The position numbers and the translations under genes are program-made. The notes under the pieces are model-generated. The model had not been told where the DNA came from. It saw only the letters and a program-made list of their open reading frames with translations, and ran no database searches. A DNA stretch of 64,000 bases from Minisyncoccota bacterium (GTDB taxonomy: Bacteria; Patescibacteriota; Microgenomatia; UBA1400; PJMF01), in assembly GCA_003173865.1 (NCBI GenBank), contig PJMF01000010.1:19088-83087 (forward strand). The letters are read 5' to 3'. This document shows positions 26,423 through 44,776 of this stretch, piece by piece. The first letter of the stretch is position 1. Each line of letters begins with the position of its first letter.

Positions 26423-26497
26423 TGGACGGCTGAGGGGAGTTGAACCCCCGACTCTCTTCTCCACAGGAAGATGCTCTACCGCTGAGCTACAGCCGTC
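26423..26497 (-). tRNA. tRNA-His (GUG) with encoded G-1
   Basis: Minus strand reads GACGGCUG-UAGCUCAGCGGUAGAGC-A-UCUUC-CUGUGGA-GAAGA-...TTCAACT...CAGCCGUC. Anticodon GUG. 8-bp acceptor stem GACGGCUG/CAGCCGUC (G-1:C73). Full CCA not encoded. Confidence 0.85.
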
Positions 26498-26511: not shown

Positions 26512-26757
26512 AAAAAACCTCCCGTTCATTACTCGCCACGTCAAAAACAACATGACAAATAAGGAACGAGAGGCAATAAAAAAGGACCTCCCGCGGTCCC
26601 ATCCTTAGTTCCTAAAAGTATTTCTCTTCTAGGCTCTTAGGCCGGCTCCGCTAATGCGACATCGGCTGTTGGATTTAACGGTTCAACTTCCGTAAGGCAT
26701 TTTGGCCTTCAGCTCGTGGATCGTGACTCCACTCAAACGCTTTTGTATTAACTTGTA
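26512..26757 (-). promoter_or_regulatory. His-specific T-box riboswitch leader with short Stem I
   Basis: Hairpin GUGGA-GUCACGA-UCCAC with CAC in the loop (26725-26723). F-box CCGUUA (26681-26676). T-box motif GGAUGGGACCGCGG (26610-26591) where UGGG's G matches the His C73 discriminator. Antiterminator element GGGAGG versus terminator CCUCUCGUUCC...GAACGGGAGG plus U6 (26573-26512). Confidence 0.6.
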
Positions 26758-26763
26758 ACAGGT

Positions 26764-26811
26764 ATTGTAGAGTATTAATTTAAAATGTCAACATGTTAAC
26801 TTATTAACATG
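26764..26811 (-). promoter_or_regulatory. Sigma-70-like promoter (-35 TTGACA, 16-nt spacer, -10 TACAAT) with abutting palindromic operator
   Basis: Minus strand -35 at 26791-26786 and -10 at 26769-26764. Inverted repeat CATGTTAA-ctta-TTAACATG at 26792-26811 lies immediately upstream of the -35. Confidence 0.45.
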
Positions 26812-26814
26812 GAT

Positions 26815-27117
26815 TTATCTTTTGGAAGAACCATATGTTCTCTGAAGAATAGCTGCATACCCTTGCCACTTTTCCTTGTAAAGCCATTGAGCAACTCGCG
26901 TCACAGTGGTTGTGCTTGTGCCCACTTTCTTGGAAATATCGAGGTATGAAAGTTTCGTCGTCCAGAGCAACTTAGCAATTTGAAATCGACTAGAGAACTC
27001 TTCAATTTCAGCGGGGGTGAGGATATCTCTCAAAAAAGAAGCTACTTCTTTTTGTCCTTTAAGAGAGGAAACAGCATTGATAAGCTCTTTGTCTTGTTTT
27101 GAAGGGTATGTTTGCAT
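26815..27117 (-). CDS. TrpR-family (YerC/YecD-like) DNA-binding protein
   Basis: 100 aa. ...LWTTKLSYLDISKKVGTSTTTVTRVAQWL carries an HTH resembling the YerC/TrpR-like family. Confidence 0.5.
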   Translation of the reverse strand: MQTYPSKQDKELINAVSSLKGQKEVASFLRDILTPAEIEEFSSRFQIAKLLWTTKLSYLDISKKVGTSTTTVTRVAQWLYKEKWQGYAAILQRTYGSSKR

Positions 27118-27272
27118 GTTAATATTTTAACATTGAGAATCTTGCAGACCAACATCAGCTTGCCAATTATTCAGGATTAATCACATAGAAGAGAATGACC
27201 CTAAATCTTAATTCAAATAAACTCAAATCTGAAGCTATGTTGATTTAGTGCTACTTGATTCAGCGATGCTGC

Positions 27273-27295: not shown

Positions 27296-27467
27296 TTTTT
27301 TAGTTGAGAATATTTCACTAGCATTTTAATTTCTGAGGTAAGTAAAAAACAACAAAAGCTCCTTAAGGAGCTTTTGCTTTTGCCTGGAAAAGGCACAATT
27401 GTAGGGTATACAATACCCTTATTATACATAAGAAAAAGAAAAAATCAAATTACTATAGGCTATATTG

Positions 27468-27573
27468 CGGAGGAAGCGGGATTCGAACCCGCGAAAAACA
27501 TTCCTGTATACCCTACAAATATGTCTTTTCCAGATTGTCACTCTAGTGCATTCGGCCGCTCTGCCACCCCTCC
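27468..27573 (-). tRNA. Atypical 106-nt tRNA-like gene (Tyr-like type II architecture, anticodon loop GUGACAA)
   Basis: GGAGGGG-UG-GCAGAGCGGCCGAAUGC-A-CUAGA-GUGACAA-UCUGG, then a 37-nt variable hairpin, then GCGGG-UUCGAAU-CCCGC-UUCCUCC-G. Acceptor 5 WC plus 2 G.U pairs. Too long for a standard tRNA. Confidence 0.4.
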
Positions 27574-28464
27574 CTTTTCATTCATACTTTTAAGTTGATT
27601 TTTCAAGTAATCTATTCCCTTTTGTAAAATGGAATAGCCATTCCCTTTTTGCTTCACATAAGTGCTCTTTATATTAGAGATATTTCCACTAGTAAAGTTA
27701 GATGTAGATATAGAGTCTTTTAGCTTATCAGATAGATATTCAATATCAGTTGCTGTTAATGATTTGATATTTCCCTTGGCTTCTGCATATATTAAGAGCC
27801 ACAAAATCTTATCGGATCTTTTCGCGAGATGATGAAATCGTGGGAATCCTTCTAATTCTGACATTACTTCTAGAGATTCCAGTCCTGCAGTTAAGATTTG
27901 TTTTTTCTTTTTGGTTTTATTGGTTCCTACTGAGAAGCCACCTTTTGGACGATTTGCGAAGTTTGAACTAAGTACTGAAAGCCCCGTTCTTGTGACGTAG
28001 TATTTGTTAGAATTTCCCAATTGAGAAATATATCCTAACTTAACTGTGTGTTTAAAATCACGAGCTAAATTTTTTGTTGGGTCTTTTTCTCCTGCTTTTA
28101 TGAAAAGATCTTTAATGTCACTTGGAGAAAAGTTATCCTGAGAATTAACTTTTTGAAAATAATTCCCCAAAATTAATACTTTATCTGGATTAAACTTAGC
28201 TTCTGGGTAAGATAAAAGCTCTTCTTGAGGAGAAAGACTTGGCGAAGTGTATTGGGAAAAACCCATTTCAGGATTTTGAGGAATTTGAGTCAAGCTAGAA
28301 TTTGAAACACCCTCTTCTTTTTCATCCTCATTACCGACTTTAATAGCAGCTATAATTTTTAAAGCAAGTTCAAAAGAAATTTCATTTTCAAATGATAGAG
28401 ATTCATCTGTTATTAAAATTTTTGGCATGTTTTGAACAGTATGCCTTCCAGTCCGTGATGTCAA
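27538..28464 (-). CDS. Hypothetical 308-aa protein whose stop lies inside the tRNA-like gene
   Basis: ORF with no recognisable domain. The last 12 codons overlap the 5' half of the tRNA-like sequence. Confidence 0.35.
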   Translation of the reverse strand: MTSRTGRHTVQNMPKILITDESLSFENEISFELALKIIAAIKVGNEDEKEEGVSNSSLTQIPQNPEMGFSQYTSPSLSPQEELLSYPEAKFNPDKVLILGNYFQKVNSQDNFSPSDIKDLFIKAGEKDPTKNLARDFKHTVKLGYISQLGNSNKYYVTRTGLSVLSSNFANRPKGGFSVGTNKTKKKKQILTAGLESLEVMSELEGFPRFHHLAKRSDKILWLLIYAEAKGNIKSLTATDIEYLSDKLKDSISTSNFTSGNISNIKSTYVKQKGNGYSILQKGIDYLKNQLKSMNEKGGVAERPNALE

Positions 28465-28984: not shown

Positions 28985-30832
28985 CTAAATTGCGTTGTAC
29001 TCCTTAAGGGTGAATTCCAATGCCTCTTCGTGTCTATTTTTAACATTATCTTCTAAATCACCCATCCCAACTCTTCTTTGTCTTCTCATATAATCTGCTC
29101 TTAACCGCTCTTTTACGGTCTCTCTGTTGTCTAGATCTGGAGAAAAATTTAACTTCATGAAATGACAACCAATGCAGGTATAGACCCTATCTTCGCCAGT
29201 CATATCTGCTTCATTTTGTGCTTCACAAAGGGCAAAGGCCAAAGGCCTATTTTCTCCTATACACTGTTTAAAAAAAGACGACGCAACATTTATTGCATCC
29301 TCATTCCCAACTTTTTTGACGGTACCGACGTAAAAATTAGCTCCCGCAAAAATAAAATTAACGGACATCGTGTAGTTAGAAACGCAAGCATTATTGAAAA
29401 CAAAAGGAGCAGATGATGGATCTGAGATACCGTGAATCATAGGAATGTATGGACCCAAAGGATCTTGAGTAATGATGACGTTGCAAAATCTCATTTGCTC
29501 ATTTTCCTTTTCTTCTAAAACCTCCCATTTCTCTCTTTCTATTGCCATAAAATCTTCAACTACTGTTTTGGATGATCCTTTTTTATACTCTTTCTTATAC
29601 CAAGGATTGCCATCAAGCTCCACAAACTCATAAAAGGTTTTTACATTAACAATTCGATTAGTGCCTTCGCCTTTATTTGTTATGTCGAAGGAATCAAGGG
29701 TATCAATAGTAATGACATGGTCACAACTCTCCTTGTCGAGAAATTTAATTTTGAAACGATTGCCTTTTGGAAAACCTGCATGGCTACAAACAAACAATAA
29801 ATCATATGGGTAATACTGGATACTTTGATCCAAATCAAAGTTCCTAAACTGATTTTCTCTGAGTTCTTTAACAAATACATTTTTTTGTGCTAATAAATCA
29901 CAGATACCATCTGTTTCTGAATTTTTAAAAAAACCTGTGTCGACAAGTAGAGCTGAGTTTACTTGAATGTATGGTTCTGCCACAGAGGAAGCTATCAAAT
30001 AAGATGGTAGCGATTTATTGTATATGTGAGTTGAAGGAATTTTGGGGAAAAGGTAACCATACGTGAAGTCGTTAGTAAAAAAAGTGATCAATTTGTATTG
30101 TTCCACATTTTTTATGTCTAACTCAAAATCCGATTTCACTTCTCCGAAAATTTGTCTTGCAAGTTCACCTCCTCTATCTTCATGCACCGATTCTCCAATC
30201 ATGTCATAAATTTCCCTTGAGCTATATTTACTTTTACTCACAAAAAATCGGATATCAGCTTTTACAGAAAAAGCATAATTGGCTAAAATCACAGGATTAT
30301 GGAGGTCCGACGAATCTGAGGCTAACAGGTGTTCTTGTTCTACCGACTGAACAATTCGATAATCTGCATCCGATTTGATTATTAATTTTAATTTTCTCCG
30401 TTTTGCTTCTAATAACGCAAACGTGACTTTTTCTCTATCTGGAGGACATTCAATTACTCCTTCAAATTTTATTCCGAAATTGGACGCTAATGTGTTAATC
30501 TCGGTTTTTTTGTTGATGTATATATATCTATCTTCTCTTAAACCAAGGTGATCCTTAATTAGATTCATCATCTTTGAAGGTACATCAGCAAAAATAATTT
30601 TTTCTGCCTTTACTCTCGCAAGAACATTATTTAATTTAACGAATTCGTTGCGCCAGTATTTATGAAGCGACCGTGGAAGTTCAAGTACAGCAAAGTACGT
30701 ATTCTCATCGTTAAAACATGACGATATTTGGGCACTTAATACAAAGTTCCCACTAATGCACACGACTCTTTTTTCTATTTTAGGTGGGAAGCTTAATGAG
30801 TCATTTATTGGATCAGGCATGGGTAAATTCAA
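28985..30832 (-). CDS. Hypothetical 615-aa protein (orphan)
   Basis: Long ORF; no motif identifiable by eye. Confidence 0.4.
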   Translation of the reverse strand: MNLPMPDPINDSLSFPPKIEKRVVCISGNFVLSAQISSCFNDENTYFAVLELPRSLHKYWRNEFVKLNNVLARVKAEKIIFADVPSKMMNLIKDHLGLREDRYIYINKKTEINTLASNFGIKFEGVIECPPDREKVTFALLEAKRRKLKLIIKSDADYRIVQSVEQEHLLASDSSDLHNPVILANYAFSVKADIRFFVSKSKYSSREIYDMIGESVHEDRGGELARQIFGEVKSDFELDIKNVEQYKLITFFTNDFTYGYLFPKIPSTHIYNKSLPSYLIASSVAEPYIQVNSALLVDTGFFKNSETDGICDLLAQKNVFVKELRENQFRNFDLDQSIQYYPYDLLFVCSHAGFPKGNRFKIKFLDKESCDHVITIDTLDSFDITNKGEGTNRIVNVKTFYEFVELDGNPWYKKEYKKGSSKTVVEDFMAIEREKWEVLEEKENEQMRFCNVIITQDPLGPYIPMIHGISDPSSAPFVFNNACVSNYTMSVNFIFAGANFYVGTVKKVGNEDAINVASSFFKQCIGENRPLAFALCEAQNEADMTGEDRVYTCIGCHFMKLNFSPDLDNRETVKERLRADYMRRQRRVGMGDLEDNVKNRHEEALEFTLKEYNAI

Positions 30833-31446
30833 GAATTACTATAAATGTCGAGAAAATCAAAAATTGTTTGAGGGAATAAAAGCGAAAGGCCAATCCCCAA
30901 AATATGTTCAGGTGTATACACGAGCGTGTTGTGAGCTCCTTCAAGTGGTACAGTCTCTGGTGGTACAGCTTCATCGCCGAATGCTGGCCTAATGGTCATC
31001 AACCGAGCTCGATCCTGTTTGGTTAAGAGGTGTTCGCTGGCTTCAAACTGCAAAACTGACTGTTTGAAAGCAGGACTTTTTTGACTCACACTCTCAAGAG
31101 ACCGAAACGTTCTATTTGGGTTACCTCTTCGCAAACGGCCACAATTATTTACTGCTTTTTCAATAACATCCTGTCGCTCTCGAAATACATTAAATGCAAA
31201 ACTTCCACCTGCACTTGAGCCAATAACATAAACCTTTCCACGTTTGTGCAACTCGTCGATAAGTACCAGCATCCGTTCAAGCTTGGGCTCAAAATCTTCA
31301 CCGTCATACCAGCCAACCCTAGATATGTGTGTTTCCACACCCATTTTCTTCCAACCTTTAGTTGCCCAAGTCATAGCTTCAATGTTATCGCCGAGTCCAG
31401 GAATAAAAATGATTTGTGGTTTTGCCTCAGGAGATGTCATCTTCAT
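30829..31446 (-). CDS. Alpha/beta hydrolase (GxSxG)
   Basis: IIFIPGLGDN ... VYVIGSSAGG nucleophile elbow. Confidence 0.5.
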   Translation of the reverse strand: MKMTSPEAKPQIIFIPGLGDNIEAMTWATKGWKKMGVETHISRVGWYDGEDFEPKLERMLVLIDELHKRGKVYVIGSSAGGSFAFNVFRERQDVIEKAVNNCGRLRRGNPNRTFRSLESVSQKSPAFKQSVLQFEASEHLLTKQDRARLMTIRPAFGDEAVPPETVPLEGAHNTLVYTPEHILGIGLSLLFPQTIFDFLDIYSNS

Positions 31447-38861: not shown

Positions 38862-41225
38862 GTGAAAACAACGGAGGGCGGGTATCTGCTCGCCCTCCGC
38901 AGATATATGACTACTGTATCAAACAAAATACCATCAAACAATCTTGAGTGGCAAGAGCTCGGACAAGCCTATCTTGACCTTGGCTGGTCAATTATTCCAG
39001 TCGGCTCTGACAAAAAACCACTGGTAAAGTGGAAAGAATACCAAGATCGTAAACCTACCGTAGATGAACTCAAGGAGTGGTGCGAAAAGAGTAACTTATC
39101 TGGTTTTGCAATCGTGACGGGTAAAATCTCGGGTGTAGTTGTGTTAGACCTTGATCAAGGATCGAAGTTTGACACATCTGTACTCACTCCTACGGTTCAT
39201 TCGCAAACGGGATCAGGTGGTCACCATTATTTTTTCAAGGCTTCTGTTGAAATAGAGCTTGGCAATGCCACTGGCTTCATCGAAAAAACTGATTTTCGTG
39301 GCGAGGGCGGTTATGCAATCTTGCCCCCCTCAAAACATCCCAGTGGCAAGCAGTATTTTTGGCTGGAAAACCCTATCGATACCACATTAGCAGACTTGCC
39401 TGCCTCTCTGATCGAGCAATTGACTAAAGTACCCAAAAAAGAAAGCCTCACCGCACAAGTAAAAGAAGAGATCAACATTTTTGAAGGTGTGGGTGAATCA
39501 AAACGCAATGACTCAGCAGCCAAAGTCGTGGGTTTCTTGATGAAGTATGTGCCTCAAGATCAATGGGAAGCAGTGGTATGGCATTTACTCAAGGGCTGGA
39601 ACCGTTTAAACCAACCACCATTATCTGAAACCGAACTTCGTTCCGTGTATGAATCTATCGCAGAAAGAGCCATTTTTGACAACCAAGGGAGTGAAAAACC
39701 TAATCAGGCGCAAATTATTGTAGGCATGGTGCTCGATTCTCCGATCAAACTTTTTACCAACCAGTTCCATGAAGCCGTTTTGACATTGCCAGATTCATCA
39801 TTTTTAACTTGCAAAATTGATTCTGAAATGACGAGGCATTTACTCTTCAAAATGTTCTGGGATTCGGAGGGCAAGCCTCCCAGTGCTGAGGGAGTCAACA
39901 ATGCAATCAAAACTTTGCAGGGTATTGCCGTTTTTGATCAACCTCAAATTGAGGTATTTAATCGAGTTGGTCGAAAAGGTAACACTGTGTACTACGACAT
40001 TGGCGATGGCACTCATATTGTAAAAATTAGCCCCGATGGCTGGACGCTTGAAGCTGAGTCACCCATTTATTTCCGTCGTTTTTCTCATCAAAAGAAACAA
40101 GTACTGCCACAACGCGGTGGAAACCTTATCGAGCTTTTTAAATTCATCAATGTTCAACAAGACCCCCAAAAGCTACTTGTGCTGACGTTTCTGGTCGTGA
40201 GCTTCATTCCCGACATTCCCAGAGCAATGCTTATTCTTCATGGAGACCAAGGCTCTGCCAAATCGACACTCCTTCGTTTATTACGCGAACTTATTGACCC
40301 AAGTGAGGTGGCTCTCCTTACCCCACCAGATTCCATTCGCGAATTGGTCCAGTTTGCCAGTCATCATTACGCTATTTTTTTGGACAATCTCTCTGAGATC
40401 GCACCCAATTTTTCAGATGCAATGTGTCGCTTAATCACTGGCGATGGATTTACCAAACGACAACTATTTAGTGACGATGAGGACGTTCTATACGCCTATA
40501 AAAGGGTCGTTGGTATTTGTGGTATCAATCAGGTAGCTACCAAACCAGATTTGCTTGACCGAAGCATTATTGTTCCCCTTGAGCGCATTCCTGATGGTAT
40601 GCGCGAAGAAGAAAAACAACTTGAAGCTGAATTCGAACAAATTAAACCATACCTACTGGGCTCTCTATTTGACGCTATCTCTACCACACTTCGCCTTGCC
40701 CCAACTTTGGAGCTAACCTCCAAACCTCGTATGGCTGATTACTTCAAATACGCCACGGCAGCAGCGAAGCATTTCAACTTTACTGAAATTCAACTCGCAG
40801 ACGCATTCAATCAAAATGTGAAGCAACAAAACGAAGAAGCCATCGATTCATCACCCGTCGCCCAAACTCTGATTGAGTTCATGGCAAACCAGTCCACCTG
40901 GCAAGGCAAGAGTTCTGAACTTTACGACAAACTTGAAGACATCGCTGACAAAATTAAAATCAAAAAAGGCTTTCCTAAGGCACCCAGTTGGCTGTGGCGG
41001 AAAATCAAAGACATTCGCCCTAACCTCATGGCTTGTGGTATTTCGATCAACAAAGAAAAGCAGATTGAAGGGACATTCATTGTTATCGAGAAAAATGCTG
41101 CCACTGCTTCCAATGCCACCATAACACCAACGCAGACCGAATCAAGTCATGCAAGCAATGGAAGCACTGCAAGCACAGTTGAGGATTTATCCGAGGATGA
41201 AACGATGAAGTTGCTGGGCGCATGA
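38862..41225 (+). CDS. Bifunctional primase-polymerase (Prim-Pol) fused to a P-loop helicase-like domain
   Basis: N-terminal GWSIIPVGSDKKPLVKWKEY...GFAIVTGKISGVVVLDLD matches the Prim-Pol signature. Walker A HGDQGSAKST; Walker B-like AIFLDNLSE. Confidence 0.7.
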   Translation: MKTTEGGYLLALRRYMTTVSNKIPSNNLEWQELGQAYLDLGWSIIPVGSDKKPLVKWKEYQDRKPTVDELKEWCEKSNLSGFAIVTGKISGVVVLDLDQGSKFDTSVLTPTVHSQTGSGGHHYFFKASVEIELGNATGFIEKTDFRGEGGYAILPPSKHPSGKQYFWLENPIDTTLADLPASLIEQLTKVPKKESLTAQVKEEINIFEGVGESKRNDSAAKVVGFLMKYVPQDQWEAVVWHLLKGWNRLNQPPLSETELRSVYESIAERAIFDNQGSEKPNQAQIIVGMVLDSPIKLFTNQFHEAVLTLPDSSFLTCKIDSEMTRHLLFKMFWDSEGKPPSAEGVNNAIKTLQGIAVFDQPQIEVFNRVGRKGNTVYYDIGDGTHIVKISPDGWTLEAESPIYFRRFSHQKKQVLPQRGGNLIELFKFINVQQDPQKLLVLTFLVVSFIPDIPRAMLILHGDQGSAKSTLLRLLRELIDPSEVALLTPPDSIRELVQFASHHYAIFLDNLSEIAPNFSDAMCRLITGDGFTKRQLFSDDEDVLYAYKRVVGICGINQVATKPDLLDRSIIVPLERIPDGMREEEKQLEAEFEQIKPYLLGSLFDAISTTLRLAPTLELTSKPRMADYFKYATAAAKHFNFTEIQLADAFNQNVKQQNEEAIDSSPVAQTLIEFMANQSTWQGKSSELYDKLEDIADKIKIKKGFPKAPSWLWRKIKDIRPNLMACGISINKEKQIEGTFIVIEKNAATASNATITPTQTESSHASNGSTASTVEDLSEDETMKLLGA

Positions 41226-42976: not shown

Positions 42977-44527
42977 GTGGCAAAGATGTATCAGCAACTG
43001 AATGGCTCTGACGACTACGCTAGTGTCAAAAACTGCCTACTCTATGCCCGTGTGAGCACGGATCGCCAAGTACGTGAGGGTCATTCTTTTGAAGACCAAA
43101 TCGAGCGATTAAGTAAGTTCGCCCGAGATCGAAACTGGCATATTATCGATGTGTATAAAGATGGGGGTAAAAGTGGTGGCTCAACTACTGGCAGACCAGA
43201 GTTTAACCGCATGCTTGAACGATGTGCCAGTGATCCAGAAGTTCATGCCGTTTTGCTCGAAGAAACTGACCGCTTCGCCCGCAATGCTCAGGATCATTTA
43301 GCCGTCAAATCATTTCTCAAAAAACATAACGTACTCTTGATAGCAACCGAGCAACCCAACTTCGGTGATGACCCAGTCGGAAAGTTTGTCGACTTAATCA
43401 TGGCTGGAGCCAACCAACTACAACGCGAAATAACTGGTCAAAAAACCAAACGCACAATGGTCTCACTTGCTGAGAAAGGTATCCAACCTGGCCCTGCCAT
43501 TATTGGGTATCGTAACTCTTATAAAAAGGGTGAGCCTTGGTCGATTGATCAAGAACGTGAGTACTTTGTCAAAGAAGTTTTTCGCCGTTACCACACTGCG
43601 ATGTACTCCATTTATCGATTAGAAGATGAATTGTTCAATGAAGGGTTTCGCACTCCAAAAAGCTGCCGTGTTCGAGCTAACGCCATTGCGCGAATGTTGG
43701 TCGATGTCCGTTATGCTGGGAAAGTGCTGTACGACGGAAAGACCTATGATGGTCTTCACCCTTGCATCGTCACCATGGAAGATATACAAAAATCAAAGGA
43801 CATTATGCAAAAACACAATAAAGGTGCAGACCGCACTCGCAAACACAACTGGTTTTTGGCTGGCCTGGCATATTGCAAAACATGCGGCACATTGATGTCT
43901 GGCGAGCAACATATCAAAGAGACTGGTCAAATCAATTTGTATTACCGGTGTCTTGGTCAAAAGAGCTATGGCAAAAGCTGCACAGAACCATATGCCATCA
44001 TGGATGACATTCACGATCAACTGGAAACGTGGATTAAAGGTTTGAAATTTGAAGAAGGTTTCTACGATGGACTGCGCCAAGAGCTATATGGCTTAATGCA
44101 AAGCCAAGGCTCAGATGTCCCGAGCCAAATACGTACACTCAAAAAACGGAAAATGGTAATTGAGAAAAAGATGGATGCGCTCGAAGATCAATTATTTGGC
44201 GAGATTGTTTCTAAAGAGCGCATTGAAAAGAAATATGCGCCACTTCGTAAAGAGTTAGAAAAGGTCGAGTCACAGATTGCAGCACTGAGTAAACCATCAG
44301 CGAACTTAGATGAAAAGAAAATTGAAAAGATCATCGACTTTTTGAAACGTTTACCCGAGCTCTATAAAGCTTTCACCAAACCAGAACGAAAACTGTTCTT
44401 ACACTGGCTCGTCAAAAATATCTGGATACAAGGCAAAAAAATCGTCGATGTGAGTTACACCGAAGGCTTCCAAGCCTTAATCGACCGTGATTTGGTTCGG
44501 ATAAGCAACACGTGGCTCCTCGGCTAG
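42977..44527 (+). CDS. Large serine recombinase/integrase
   Basis: Resolvase N-terminus LLYARVSTDRQ with catalytic Ser. Recombinase domain and Cys cluster CKTCG...C. The stop lies within the tRNA-Asn 3' end. Confidence 0.8.
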   Translation: MAKMYQQLNGSDDYASVKNCLLYARVSTDRQVREGHSFEDQIERLSKFARDRNWHIIDVYKDGGKSGGSTTGRPEFNRMLERCASDPEVHAVLLEETDRFARNAQDHLAVKSFLKKHNVLLIATEQPNFGDDPVGKFVDLIMAGANQLQREITGQKTKRTMVSLAEKGIQPGPAIIGYRNSYKKGEPWSIDQEREYFVKEVFRRYHTAMYSIYRLEDELFNEGFRTPKSCRVRANAIARMLVDVRYAGKVLYDGKTYDGLHPCIVTMEDIQKSKDIMQKHNKGADRTRKHNWFLAGLAYCKTCGTLMSGEQHIKETGQINLYYRCLGQKSYGKSCTEPYAIMDDIHDQLETWIKGLKFEEGFYDGLRQELYGLMQSQGSDVPSQIRTLKKRKMVIEKKMDALEDQLFGEIVSKERIEKKYAPLRKELEKVESQIAALSKPSANLDEKKIEKIIDFLKRLPELYKAFTKPERKLFLHWLVKNIWIQGKKIVDVSYTEGFQALIDRDLVRISNTWLLG

Positions 44528-44776
44528 GATTCGAACCTAGAACCATCTCCTTACAAAGGTCCCTTAGTTACCTAAAGGTTTGGACTATCTTATCCGCCAA
44601 ACTGTGTTTGGTGGCTGGGTATATAGTCTCTACACATTTACCCCGCCGCGGCGGGGATTTAGCTCGGGATTTTCCTCTGAAGAGGAGTTCCCCGAATTAG
44701 CCCAGTTTTCCACTATCTATTACTAGACAGCGCTGCCATGTAACAGGGAGCCGCGCTACCATTGCGCCACCGAGGA
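44513..44776 (-). tRNA. tRNA-Asn (GUU) interrupted in the anticodon loop by a group I intron
   Basis: 5' exon UCCUCGG-UG-GCGC-AAUGGUA-GCGC-G-GCUCC-CUGU. 3' exon UAAGGAGA-UGGUU-CUAGG-UUCGAAU-CCUAG-CCGAGGA-G-CCA. Spliced anticodon loop is CUGUUAA. Confidence 0.7.
44554..44742 (-). ncRNA. Group I intron (about 189 nt, no ORF)
   Basis: P-like AAUUCGGGGAA, Q-like AAUCCCCGCC, R-like GUAGAGACUAUA, S-like AAGAUAGUCC. 5' exon ends in U. omega-G precedes the 3' exon. IGS GCAG pairs with exon CUGU. Confidence 0.65.

Follow-up and report, generated by a model that had tools for sequence, protein, structure and literature searches.

A class II tRNA-shaped element overlapping the end of a conserved protein gene in Patescibacteria-type bacteria: a candidate partner RNA with a drifting anticodon

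The 64,000-nucleotide stretch of contig PJMF01000010.1 from a Minisyncoccota bacterium analysed here (the window) carries on its minus strand a 106-nucleotide (nt) gene for a tRNA with an over-long variable (V) arm, the 5' half of which is at the same time the end of a protein-coding gene, here named X. We favour, with moderate confidence, the reading that this element is a functional, selection-maintained class II tRNA-shaped RNA forming the 3' end of a conserved X module in CPR (Candidate Phyla Radiation)/Patescibacteria-type bacteria. Judging from sequence comparison, the RNA is more likely coupled to X as a partner or regulatory RNA than employed as a routine decoder, because its anticodon drifts while the scaffold, the reading frame and a partial second copy are kept, and because GUC and GUU codons (GUY) remain valine codons. 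The evidence is sequence and computation, for this genome over 64 kb, beyond which a canonical tRNA-Val may lie.

The tRNA element and its serine-type scaffold

The element and the gene that runs into it comprise the following features (L150 is the contig that holds the closest homologue of the tRNA).

27468..27573, minus strand: class II (long V arm) tRNA gene, 106 nt, 7/5 cloverleaf (Rfam, fold, homology to L150)
27530..27546, minus strand: anticodon arm CUAGA-GUGACAA-UCUGG (sequence, Rfam alignment, ARAGORN -i)
27493..27529, minus strand: 37-nt V arm (folding and alignment with L150)
27538..28428, minus strand: gene X, 296 aa when counted from the NCBI start ATG, its open reading frame (ORF) reaching 28464 (phmmer, alignment, AlphaFold2)

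The minus-strand RNA reads GGAGGGG-UG-GCAG-AGCGGCCGAA-UGC-A-CUAGA-GUGACAA-UCUGG-(37 nt)-GCGGG-UUCGAAU-CCCGC-UUCCUCC-G. A preliminary description of the window had proposed a class II tRNA-type gene here, and this was borne out: the Rfam tRNA model RF00005, the best match within its clan, aligns over model positions 1-71 to exactly 27468-27573 (minus strand) with 45.0 bits against a gathering cut-off of 29. The acceptor stem GGAGGGG/UUCCUCC contains five Watson-Crick and two G.U pairs, the anticodon loop is GUGACAA with the anticodon GAC at 27537-27539, and the V region spans 37 nt, all as first described. U8-G9 precede a D arm with a 3-bp stem and the 10-nt loop AGCGGCCGAA, A26 follows, and the 3' part consists of C48, the T arm GCGGG-UUCGAAU-CCCGC, the 3' acceptor strand and the discriminator G73. 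The conserved tertiary nucleotides are all intact (U8, A14, G18G19, U33, A37, C48, G53-C61, the UUCGAAU T loop and A58), and homologues described below keep the cloverleaf through compensatory changes, neither of which fits the suggestion that the gene is degenerate. Position 32 is G, which is unusual at a site normally occupied by a pyrimidine. CCA is not encoded at the 3' end, but this is uninformative, since only one of the window's three ordinary tRNAs encodes it.

The V arm folds into an outer stem, AAAA(G)ACAU/AUGUUUUU, of 8 bp with one bulged G, topped by an inner hairpin, UUGUA-GGGUA-UACAG, of 5-6 bp; its 37 nt compare with 16 nt for the V region of the window's own tRNA-Ser(GGA). The folding energy of the whole tRNA is -39.2 kcal/mol (z = -3.5 against dinucleotide shuffles). 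ARAGORN in its default mode calls no tRNA at 27468-27573. With introns allowed it returns a tRNA-Val(gac) at the element, in agreement on the anticodon, together with a 17-nt "intron" that is an artefact absorbing the long arm, because ARAGORN limits variable-arm length. An independent assembly, Logan contig L001 (SRR490139), is identical to the window over the 969-nt region compared.

The element had been likened to tRNA-Tyr. Identity of tRNA-Tyr needs A73 and the anticodon GUA, whereas the element has G73 and GAC, and its nucleotides match the serine set instead. The long V arm, G73, G1-C72, G2-C71, A3-U70 and C11-G24 that make up the bacterial serine identity set (PMC7609411, PMC5389517; also established knowledge) can all be read from the sequence. 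Judged from these positions, the scaffold is of the Ser type and not of the Tyr type, and by bacterial identity rules seryl-tRNA synthetase (SerRS) could charge the RNA. The same nucleotides are those of canonical bacterial tRNA-Ser, with which the element also shares a 3-bp D stem with G13-A22 and a V arm that begins 1 nt past the anticodon stem and stops 1 nt (C48) before the T stem; some of the viral-contig tRNAs discussed below that match its D-arm pattern, TGGCNGAGYGGNNGAANGC, have GCU, a serine anticodon. It differs from canonical tRNA-Ser in the anticodon, GAC in place of NGA or GCU, in the 37-nt V region and G32, and in the coding sequence that overlaps its 5' half.

The codons read by GAC, GUC and GUU, account for 3.8% of the codon total in the window's confident genes, and their positions align with V/I/A/L in relatives in the same way as those of GUA and GUG. 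There is thus no sign of codon reassignment, and by this comparison GUY codons in this genome still behave as valine.

Other RNA classes were tried and rejected. A tRNA-Sec requires an 8/5 (13-bp) acceptor/T domain, a 6-bp D stem and UCA, whereas the element is 7/5 with GAC and matches RF00005 best; the Y RNA-like YrlA model scores 18.3 bits against a gathering cut-off of 69, and permuted transfer-messenger RNA 10.5 bits against 47. No T-box match was returned by Rfam over 27468-27573.

Gene X and the linked tRNA in other lineages

The TGA stop codon of X (27538-27540) is tRNA nt 34-36, that is, U33-G34-A35 of the anticodon loop, and the last 11 residues of the protein, GGVAERPNALE, are the translation of tRNA nt 1-33. 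Family alignments of X stop at about residue 277-284 of 296, before this tRNA-encoded tail. The stop codon had been correctly placed inside the tRNA-like 5' half, and the lineages below indicate that the overlap is conserved and not an accident of the locus. The 308-aa ORF had also been called an orphan, which it is not: a word-indexed protein search matched only the ORF itself, while an exhaustive phmmer search against 1.84 billion representatives found 475 related proteins at E <= 1e-3, 142 of them at E <= 1e-10. The best 150 of the 475 are 96-365 aa long, mostly 260-300 aa, and 24-41% identical to X, near-full-length members reaching at most 37%; the one named member of the family belongs to Candidatus Roizmanbacteria. 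Pfam, a PDB sequence search, PADLOC, PHROGs and NCBIfam gave no annotation for X. AlphaFold2 run on the single sequence yielded an unusable model (predicted confidence, pLDDT, 34), and an alignment of 40 family members was used instead, giving pLDDT 87.3. The resulting model begins with a small beta-hairpin/helix domain at the N-terminus and continues with two winged-helix-like domains, a basic linker between them, and Foldseek against PDB returned weak matches (best E = 0.006) to winged-helix DNA binders and tandem winged-helix proteins. X is accordingly predicted, from the model, to represent a family of ~280-aa proteins with tandem winged-helix domains.

Scanning the C-termini of the best 150 relatives recovered the X-tRNA arrangement in six lineages, the window included. 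Tails of the tRNA-encoded type, among them GGVAERP.. and GEVPERP.., occur in P0081 (...KGGVAERPKASG), P0111 (GEVPERPNGETS), P0128 (GEVPERSNGSAS), P0126 (GGVAESD) and P0104 (GGVA). On the contigs of these five relatives a class II tRNA of 90-97 nt with G73 begins exactly at the start of the tail, and in all six lineages tRNA nt 1 is codon position 1 of X. X lies on these contigs inside the str/S10 ribosomal-protein region. The five other lineages are listed below with the gene orders found.

L150-153: anticodon GAC, loop CUGACAA, tRNA of 91 nt; EF-Tu-S10-X-tRNA
L157: anticodon CAU, tRNA of 90 nt; EF-Tu-X-tRNA-L3-L4-L23-L2, no S10 gene called
L158-160: anticodon CAU, tRNA of 93 nt
L161: anticodon AGU in an enlarged loop (8-10 nt), tRNA of 93 nt; S10-X-tRNA-L3-L4-L23-L2
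L162-164: anticodon UAG, tRNA of 97 nt; S12-S7-X-tRNA

The stop codon of X is UGA at tRNA positions 33-35 in the GAC-type tRNAs and UAA at positions 36-38 in the CAU-type tRNAs, and in L161 and L162-164 it falls within the D loop. Over its full length, apart from a 16-nt gap in the V loop, the window tRNA can be aligned with that of L150, with compensatory changes at pairs 3-70, 12-23 and 51-63. This alignment shows the V loop of the window lineage to have gained about 16 nt, giving the 37-nt arm; position 32 has also changed to G in this lineage. The proposal of an insertion-disrupted tRNA is in this respect half right: there is a V-loop insertion relative to the 91-nt GAC tRNA of L150, of about 16 nt and not the 25-30 nt suggested. 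Across the six lineages 95.8% of the alignment cells are paired and double changes are present in 13 of 20 pairs, a level reached by none of 500 shuffles, while slid partners are only 41-53% paired. G1-C72, G2-C71, C11-G24 and G73 are invariant, and pair 3-70 alternates between A-U and U-A.

The module pattern had no match among IMG/VR viral contigs, and a literature search found no description of an X-tRNA module. Both of its halves escape tRNA finders at default settings and protein searches that rely on a word index.

The partial second copy and the genomic surroundings

Downstream of the tRNA lies a second, partial copy of its anticodon-stem/V-arm segment, with the following associated features.

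27505..27533, minus strand: repeat copy 1, within the tRNA (anticodon-stem 3' strand, then V-arm 5' strand and tip; tRNA nt 41-69; repeat search)
27384..27412, minus strand: repeat copy 2, an inverted counterpart that is complementary at 26 of 29 nt to copy 1 (repeat search, lineage comparison, controls)
27351..27378, no strand assigned: hairpin terminator between an A-run and a U-run, scoring on both strands (repeat and terminator search)
27421..27448, minus strand: sigma-70-like TTGATT-16-TATAAT with TG one base 5' of TATAAT, between the tRNA and copy 2 (consensus match only)

The 14-mer TTGTAGGGTATACA occurs exactly twice, at 27399-27412 (plus strand) and 27505-27518 (minus strand), against 0.17 occurrences expected by chance. 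The inverted copy in the preliminary description thus stands, although its true extent is larger: the 14-mer is part of a 29-nt inverted repeat, 27384-27412/27505-27533, that is 90% complementary with 92 nt between its arms. It is the best inverted repeat within 300 nt across the window, and when the local 317 nt were dinucleotide-shuffled 1000 times, only two shuffles reached its score. The second-best short-range inverted repeat of the window lies elsewhere, at 50834-50858/50903-50927 (25 nt, 84% complementary, 44-nt spacer).

Behind the tRNA of each of the five other lineages come a short CAUAA-like trailer, an A-run/GGCCUUUCGGCC/U-run terminator and, last, a direct partial copy of 15-27 nt that repeats the anticodon-arm/V-arm segment of that tRNA. 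Across the six lineages the copies score 15-20 and lie, like the terminator, within about 100 nt downstream. Each copy matches the tRNA of its own locus, and V-arm sequences differ widely among lineages; in L150 the copy forms a V-arm-like hairpin that differs from that of the tRNA by one compensatory pair (C-G to U-A). The window copy contains the window-specific V-loop insertion, precedes the terminator and is inverted, and an inversion of the terminator-plus-copy block in the window lineage accounts for the 29-nt inverted repeat. Among 63 other long class II tRNAs used as controls, the direct score was at most 13, except for one tandem duplicate, and the inverted score at most 10; ordinary CPR tRNAs gave copy scores mostly of 6-9, with two att-like 3'-end duplications. 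On these comparisons, the copy is a specific and co-evolving part of the module whose orientation varies. A conserved function by antisense pairing or inversion is made less likely by this variation, which would suit a site bound by a protein.

Further observations concern the flanks of this and other tRNAs. A conserved motif, TTGTCAAG...TATAGG, lies 30-60 nt past the partial copy in L150, L157, L158, L161 and L162, and in L150, L157 and L161 a TTGCxx-17-TATAAT promoter comes next, in front of the downstream genes. Partial direct duplications about 100-120 nt downstream of ordinary tRNAs, in L019 (799-871, tRNA-Met nt 19-73) and L003 (1045-1130, tRNA-Ser nt 69-86), resemble classical att-type scars or tandem remnants.

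The 29-nt inverted repeat could itself be the functional core in the window lineage, either as a DNA inversion switch that flips the 92-nt segment (T arm, 3' acceptor strand and promoter-like site) and so toggles the tRNA gene, or as an RNA-level mask in which the 3' trailer, or a ~70-nt small RNA (sRNA) from the promoter-like site, pairs with the anticodon-stem/V-arm segment and blocks tRNA folding. Such a role would suit the window's best inverted repeat, which encloses the TTGATT-16-(TG)TATAAT match and precedes a terminator. In the 234-nt read-through transcript the long-range duplex is predicted at -80.0 kcal/mol versus -67.4 kcal/mol with the cloverleaf enforced, and the predicted duplex of tRNA and putative sRNA reaches about -51 to -53 kcal/mol. 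However, the copy is direct and follows the terminator in the five other lineages, so that inversion or antisense pairing cannot be the conserved role. No recombinase gene is adjacent or within 15 kb, the only other assembly (L001) has the same orientation, and the promoter match carries little weight in AT-rich DNA, where 10 sigma-70-like sites were found in 2.4 kb versus 6.2 expected. We regard this explanation as very doubtful. Two kinds of mobile or variable element were also considered and rejected: a miniature inverted-repeat transposable element, given the absence of target duplications and of any other copy in the window and the loss of the T arm that excision would entail, and the template and variable repeats of a diversity-generating retroelement, given differences that are not adenine-specific and the absence of a reverse transcriptase.

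The window comes from a CPR/Patescibacteria genome, and the closest named relatives of a TrpR-like protein encoded next to the module are from metagenome-assembled genomes of Candidatus Pacebacteria (70-78% identity). Downstream of the module on the minus strand follow the TrpR-like gene, a T-box-like leader, tRNA-His, the his operon hisG-hisS-hisC-hisD and further unannotated ORFs. Upstream lie a CHAT-like gene pair, several genes for small enzymes, and an element with Prim-Pol and large serine recombinase genes that abuts a split tRNA-Asn. Just upstream of the TrpR-like gene the synteny with relatives ends, and among 26 related loci found through this neighbour none has a tRNA-like gene upstream of it.

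This setting bears on the possibility that the element is an evolutionary relic, namely a tRNA copy in decay, or a scar left by recombination, at the border of strain-specific DNA, with the 29-nt repeat as a functionless leftover. The synteny break and the absence from all 26 loci agree with such an origin, as do the Prim-Pol/recombinase element and intron-bearing tRNA-Asn 10-17 kb away, the situation in L011, where relatives of the recombinase and of one further gene of the element stand between tRNA-Asn and the TrpR-like gene, the att-type duplications near other CPR tRNAs (L003 Ser, L019 Met), and the window tRNA itself, which has the lowest Rfam score of its family and several atypical positions. 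Yet no conserved tertiary nucleotide has been lost and the V-arm extension is well paired; the gene-tRNA-terminator-copy layout is kept though the X proteins are just ~30-37% identical, and in each lineage the copy follows the sequence of its own tRNA. Moreover, the repeat lies within the tRNA and not at its 3' end, about 95 nt away and with no integrase beside it. A relic seems improbable. The related suggestion of an att site for a neighbouring island has to be given up, the repeat being inverted, internal (nt 41-69), 92 nt off and without an adjacent integrase, and because homologous tRNAs in ribosomal-protein operons have such a partial copy beside them as well, there in direct orientation.

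Several of the neighbouring genes merit description in their own right. The tRNA-Asn(GUU) gene (44513-44776, minus strand) has a 189-nt group I intron in its anticodon loop (Rfam Intron_gpI, 56.5 bits; ARAGORN with introns), and its 3' end overlaps in antisense with the stop of the large serine recombinase gene (42977-44527), which together with the Prim-Pol gene (38862-41225) looks like an integrated element beside tRNA-Asn. The his leader (26559-26746, minus strand) scores 43.8 bits with the T-box model, below the threshold of 93 (local E = 1.6e-8), and has a recognisable T-box motif with a truncated stem I and DNA-level conservation in L003 and L010. It is followed by tRNA-His (26424-26496, minus strand), with G-1 encoded, and by hisG from about 26410. 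Palindromes of the form ATGTTAA-N5-TTAACAT at 27115-27133 (start of the TrpR-like gene) and 26793-26811 (-35 region of the his promoter) are probably operators of the TrpR-like (YerC/YecD-type) protein. The TrpR-like gene precedes hisG or a his operon in several related loci (L003, L010, L012 and L026), and the order is inverted in L017 and L024.

The CHAT-like pair includes a 615-aa ORF (28985-31446, minus strand) with about 47 homologues, mostly from CPR, a few of which have a match to the CHAT (caspase-like) Pfam domain; homologues often adjoin resolvase, helix-turn-helix or Prim-Pol genes. Its 205-aa upstream partner has a GxSxG hydrolase motif, and some homologues of the 615-aa ORF are ~230 aa longer (~844 aa), which could reflect fusion to the partner. 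The two ORFs may be a conflict-system pair. Homologues of the 615-aa protein have no linked tRNA; in another CPR genome, a LOOT RNA (RF03000, 78 bits; L146 1438-1550, minus strand) lies near one of them.

Analogues, possible roles and known systems

Analogues were sought with a pattern combining a Ser-type D arm with an over-long distance to the T loop, which matched 69 viral contigs; a narrower version of it matched 48 metagenome contigs. Ser-scaffold tRNAs with V regions of 30-49 nt and the anticodons GCA, UAG, UAC, GUC, GUA, CCA or GAA account for many of the matches and score 52-59 bits. The 37-nt V arm of the window tRNA is therefore abnormal yet not unique. The analogue set contained no homologue of the window tRNA and no comparable flank repeat, patterns of the exact loop and V arm gave nothing, or one chance match inside a coding region, among viral contigs, and BLAST against phage and plasmid collections returned nothing relevant. 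On six viral contigs (L029, L030, L035, L038, L039 and L073) tRNA-like genes combine acceptor, D and T arms of the Ser type (GGAAGGAUGGCUGAGUGGUCGAAGGCA ... CGCGGGUUCGAAUCCCGCUCCUUCC) with a non-canonical middle of 60-70 nt in place of the anticodon and variable arms.

In seven soil contigs (L098, L101, L112, L120, L123, L130 and L144), Ser-scaffold tRNAs of 105-112 nt with G73-CCA, anticodons GCA or UAG and V arms of 35-43 nt each lie ~300 nt upstream of a DDE_Tnp_1/SWIM transposase gene, and in L120 and L101 shared GGCTTTGC-type inverted repeats 3.1-3.5 kb apart enclose both tRNA and transposase. These units are consistent, by their sequence, with an insertion sequence (IS) family carrying an irregular tRNA as a passenger. 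The IS-borne tRNAs share with the window tRNA the Ser scaffold, a long V arm, a non-Ser anticodon and a tie to a specific neighbouring gene. They differ in that the neighbour encodes a transposase, in having neither an X gene nor a partial copy, and in belonging to high G+C genomes outside CPR.

In parallel with allo-tRNAs and nematode nev-tRNAs, the element might be an active missense (ambiguous-decoding) tRNA that is charged by SerRS irrespective of its anticodon and inserts serine at GUC/GUU, giving low-level or conditional Val-to-Ser substitution, with its relatives acting at AUG, ACU or CUA. The complete serine identity set and intact cloverleaf would allow this, as would the 7-nt loop with U33 and A37A38 in five of the six lineages. 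The many Ser-scaffold, non-Ser-anticodon tRNAs of metagenomes and viral contigs point the same way, and allo-tRNAs of such properties insert serine in E. coli (PMC5389517), while engineered tRNAs with aptamer-tipped V arms remain translationally active (PMC7590224). Against it, GUY codons, at 3.8% of all codons, behave as valine, so that constitutive missense activity would harm the whole proteome, and in relatives the module sits in core ribosomal operons. The G32, the bulged V stem and the weak acceptor base suggest poor activity of the window tRNA, a V-stem bulge having abolished SerRS charging of allo-tRNAs in E. coli (PMC7590224), and the loop of L161 is enlarged. On balance a missense role appears unlikely.

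The reading favoured here, a maintained tRNA-shaped RNA coupled to X, can be phrased as a mechanism. The tRNA would be transcribed as the tail of the X mRNA, and cleavage by RNase P at its 5' end would remove the last 11 codons and the stop codon of X, making maturation of the tRNA and completion of X mutually exclusive on any one transcript. The second copy would offer a second binding site, as a DNA operator or an RNA mimic, for whatever recognises the anticodon-stem/V-arm segment, and X is the obvious candidate for this recogniser.

A number of observations weigh against this reading. Recovery through tRNA-encoded protein tails introduces an ascertainment bias toward overlapping cases, and it yielded only six lineages; the X genes of L154-156 have no tRNA and are followed by an ORF of 240-260 aa. 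Cloverleaf covariation is expected from any set of real tRNAs, for which reason the claim of a family rests on synteny, frame, the class II/G73 scaffold and the terminator-plus-copy layout. The canonical U33...A37A38 loop in five of six lineages is a better fit to a decoding RNA, or to one recognised by an aminoacyl-tRNA synthetase, than to a pure processing signal. The window tRNA scores 45 bits versus 49-53 bits for its relatives and combines G32 with two G.U pairs at the acceptor base and a bulged V stem, so that this copy could be heading to inactivation. Finally, every Foldseek E-value for X exceeds 0.001, and its binding to either copy of the segment is a proposal.

A stronger form of the proposal would be a tRNA-based system of CPR that has not been described before, in which X binds the V arm of its own mRNA's Ser-chargeable tRNA as well as a decoy, thereby controlling release of a non-cognate tRNA, and in which the decoy of the window has been inverted into a 29-nt antisense mask. 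We give this a low probability. If true, it would constitute, for example, a conflict or defence system, or a device for conditional mistranslation, with an anticodon that diversifies between lineages. Ser-type tRNAs with non-Ser anticodons break the rule that ties amino acid to anticodon and are rare in nature; those known, the allo-tRNAs and the nev-tRNAs of nematodes, have so far been isolated curiosities of unclear use. In the module described here, a tRNA of this type is joined to a conserved protein gene, switches anticodon between lineages on a scaffold that is kept, and has a co-evolving self-copy, in several lineages within ribosomal-protein operons. The module is thereby a system in which the purpose of non-cognate tRNAs (decoding, regulation or conflict), the restraint of a potentially toxic tRNA and the coupling of mRNA translation with tRNA maturation can be tested.

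Among known systems, tRNA-like elements embedded in mRNAs or long transcripts include the thrS operator, which mimics the anticodon arm of tRNA-Thr, and tRNA-like 3' ends such as mascRNA. The window element resembles these as a tRNA-shaped element ending a protein-coding transcript, with an anticodon-arm-like copy as a possible mimic. They are partial mimics, whereas the window element is a complete tRNA with all tertiary nucleotides, and its binding protein is a candidate only.

The allo-tRNAs (Mukai et al. 2017, NAR; PMC5389517) share with it the long V arm, the G73/U73 serine identity and non-Ser anticodons. Irregular forms are frequent among them, an association with transposon or toxin-antitoxin genes is seen in some cases, and one pseudogene overlaps an ORF (PMC5389517). 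Their defining 8/4 or 9/3 acceptor/T arrangement and long D stem with tetraloop (PMC5389517) are not found in the window tRNA, which has the canonical 7/5 arrangement and a D arm of the ordinary tRNA-Ser type. No counterpart is described in allo-tRNAs of the winged-helix gene fused in frame or of the partial copy downstream, both features of the window module.

The nematode nev-tRNAs (Hamashima et al. 2012; PMC3333845) are likewise class II tRNAs that are conserved in their lineage and have anticodons belonging to neither Ser nor Leu, and their charging is set by the V arm and not by the anticodon (PMC3333845). They differ in being eukaryotic, in their Leu identity, in a fixed anticodon per type (Gly CCC, Ile UAU) and in having no linked protein gene (PMC3333845). 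By analogy, the window element behaves most like the allo-tRNA/nev-tRNA kind, with a class II scaffold and a non-cognate anticodon.

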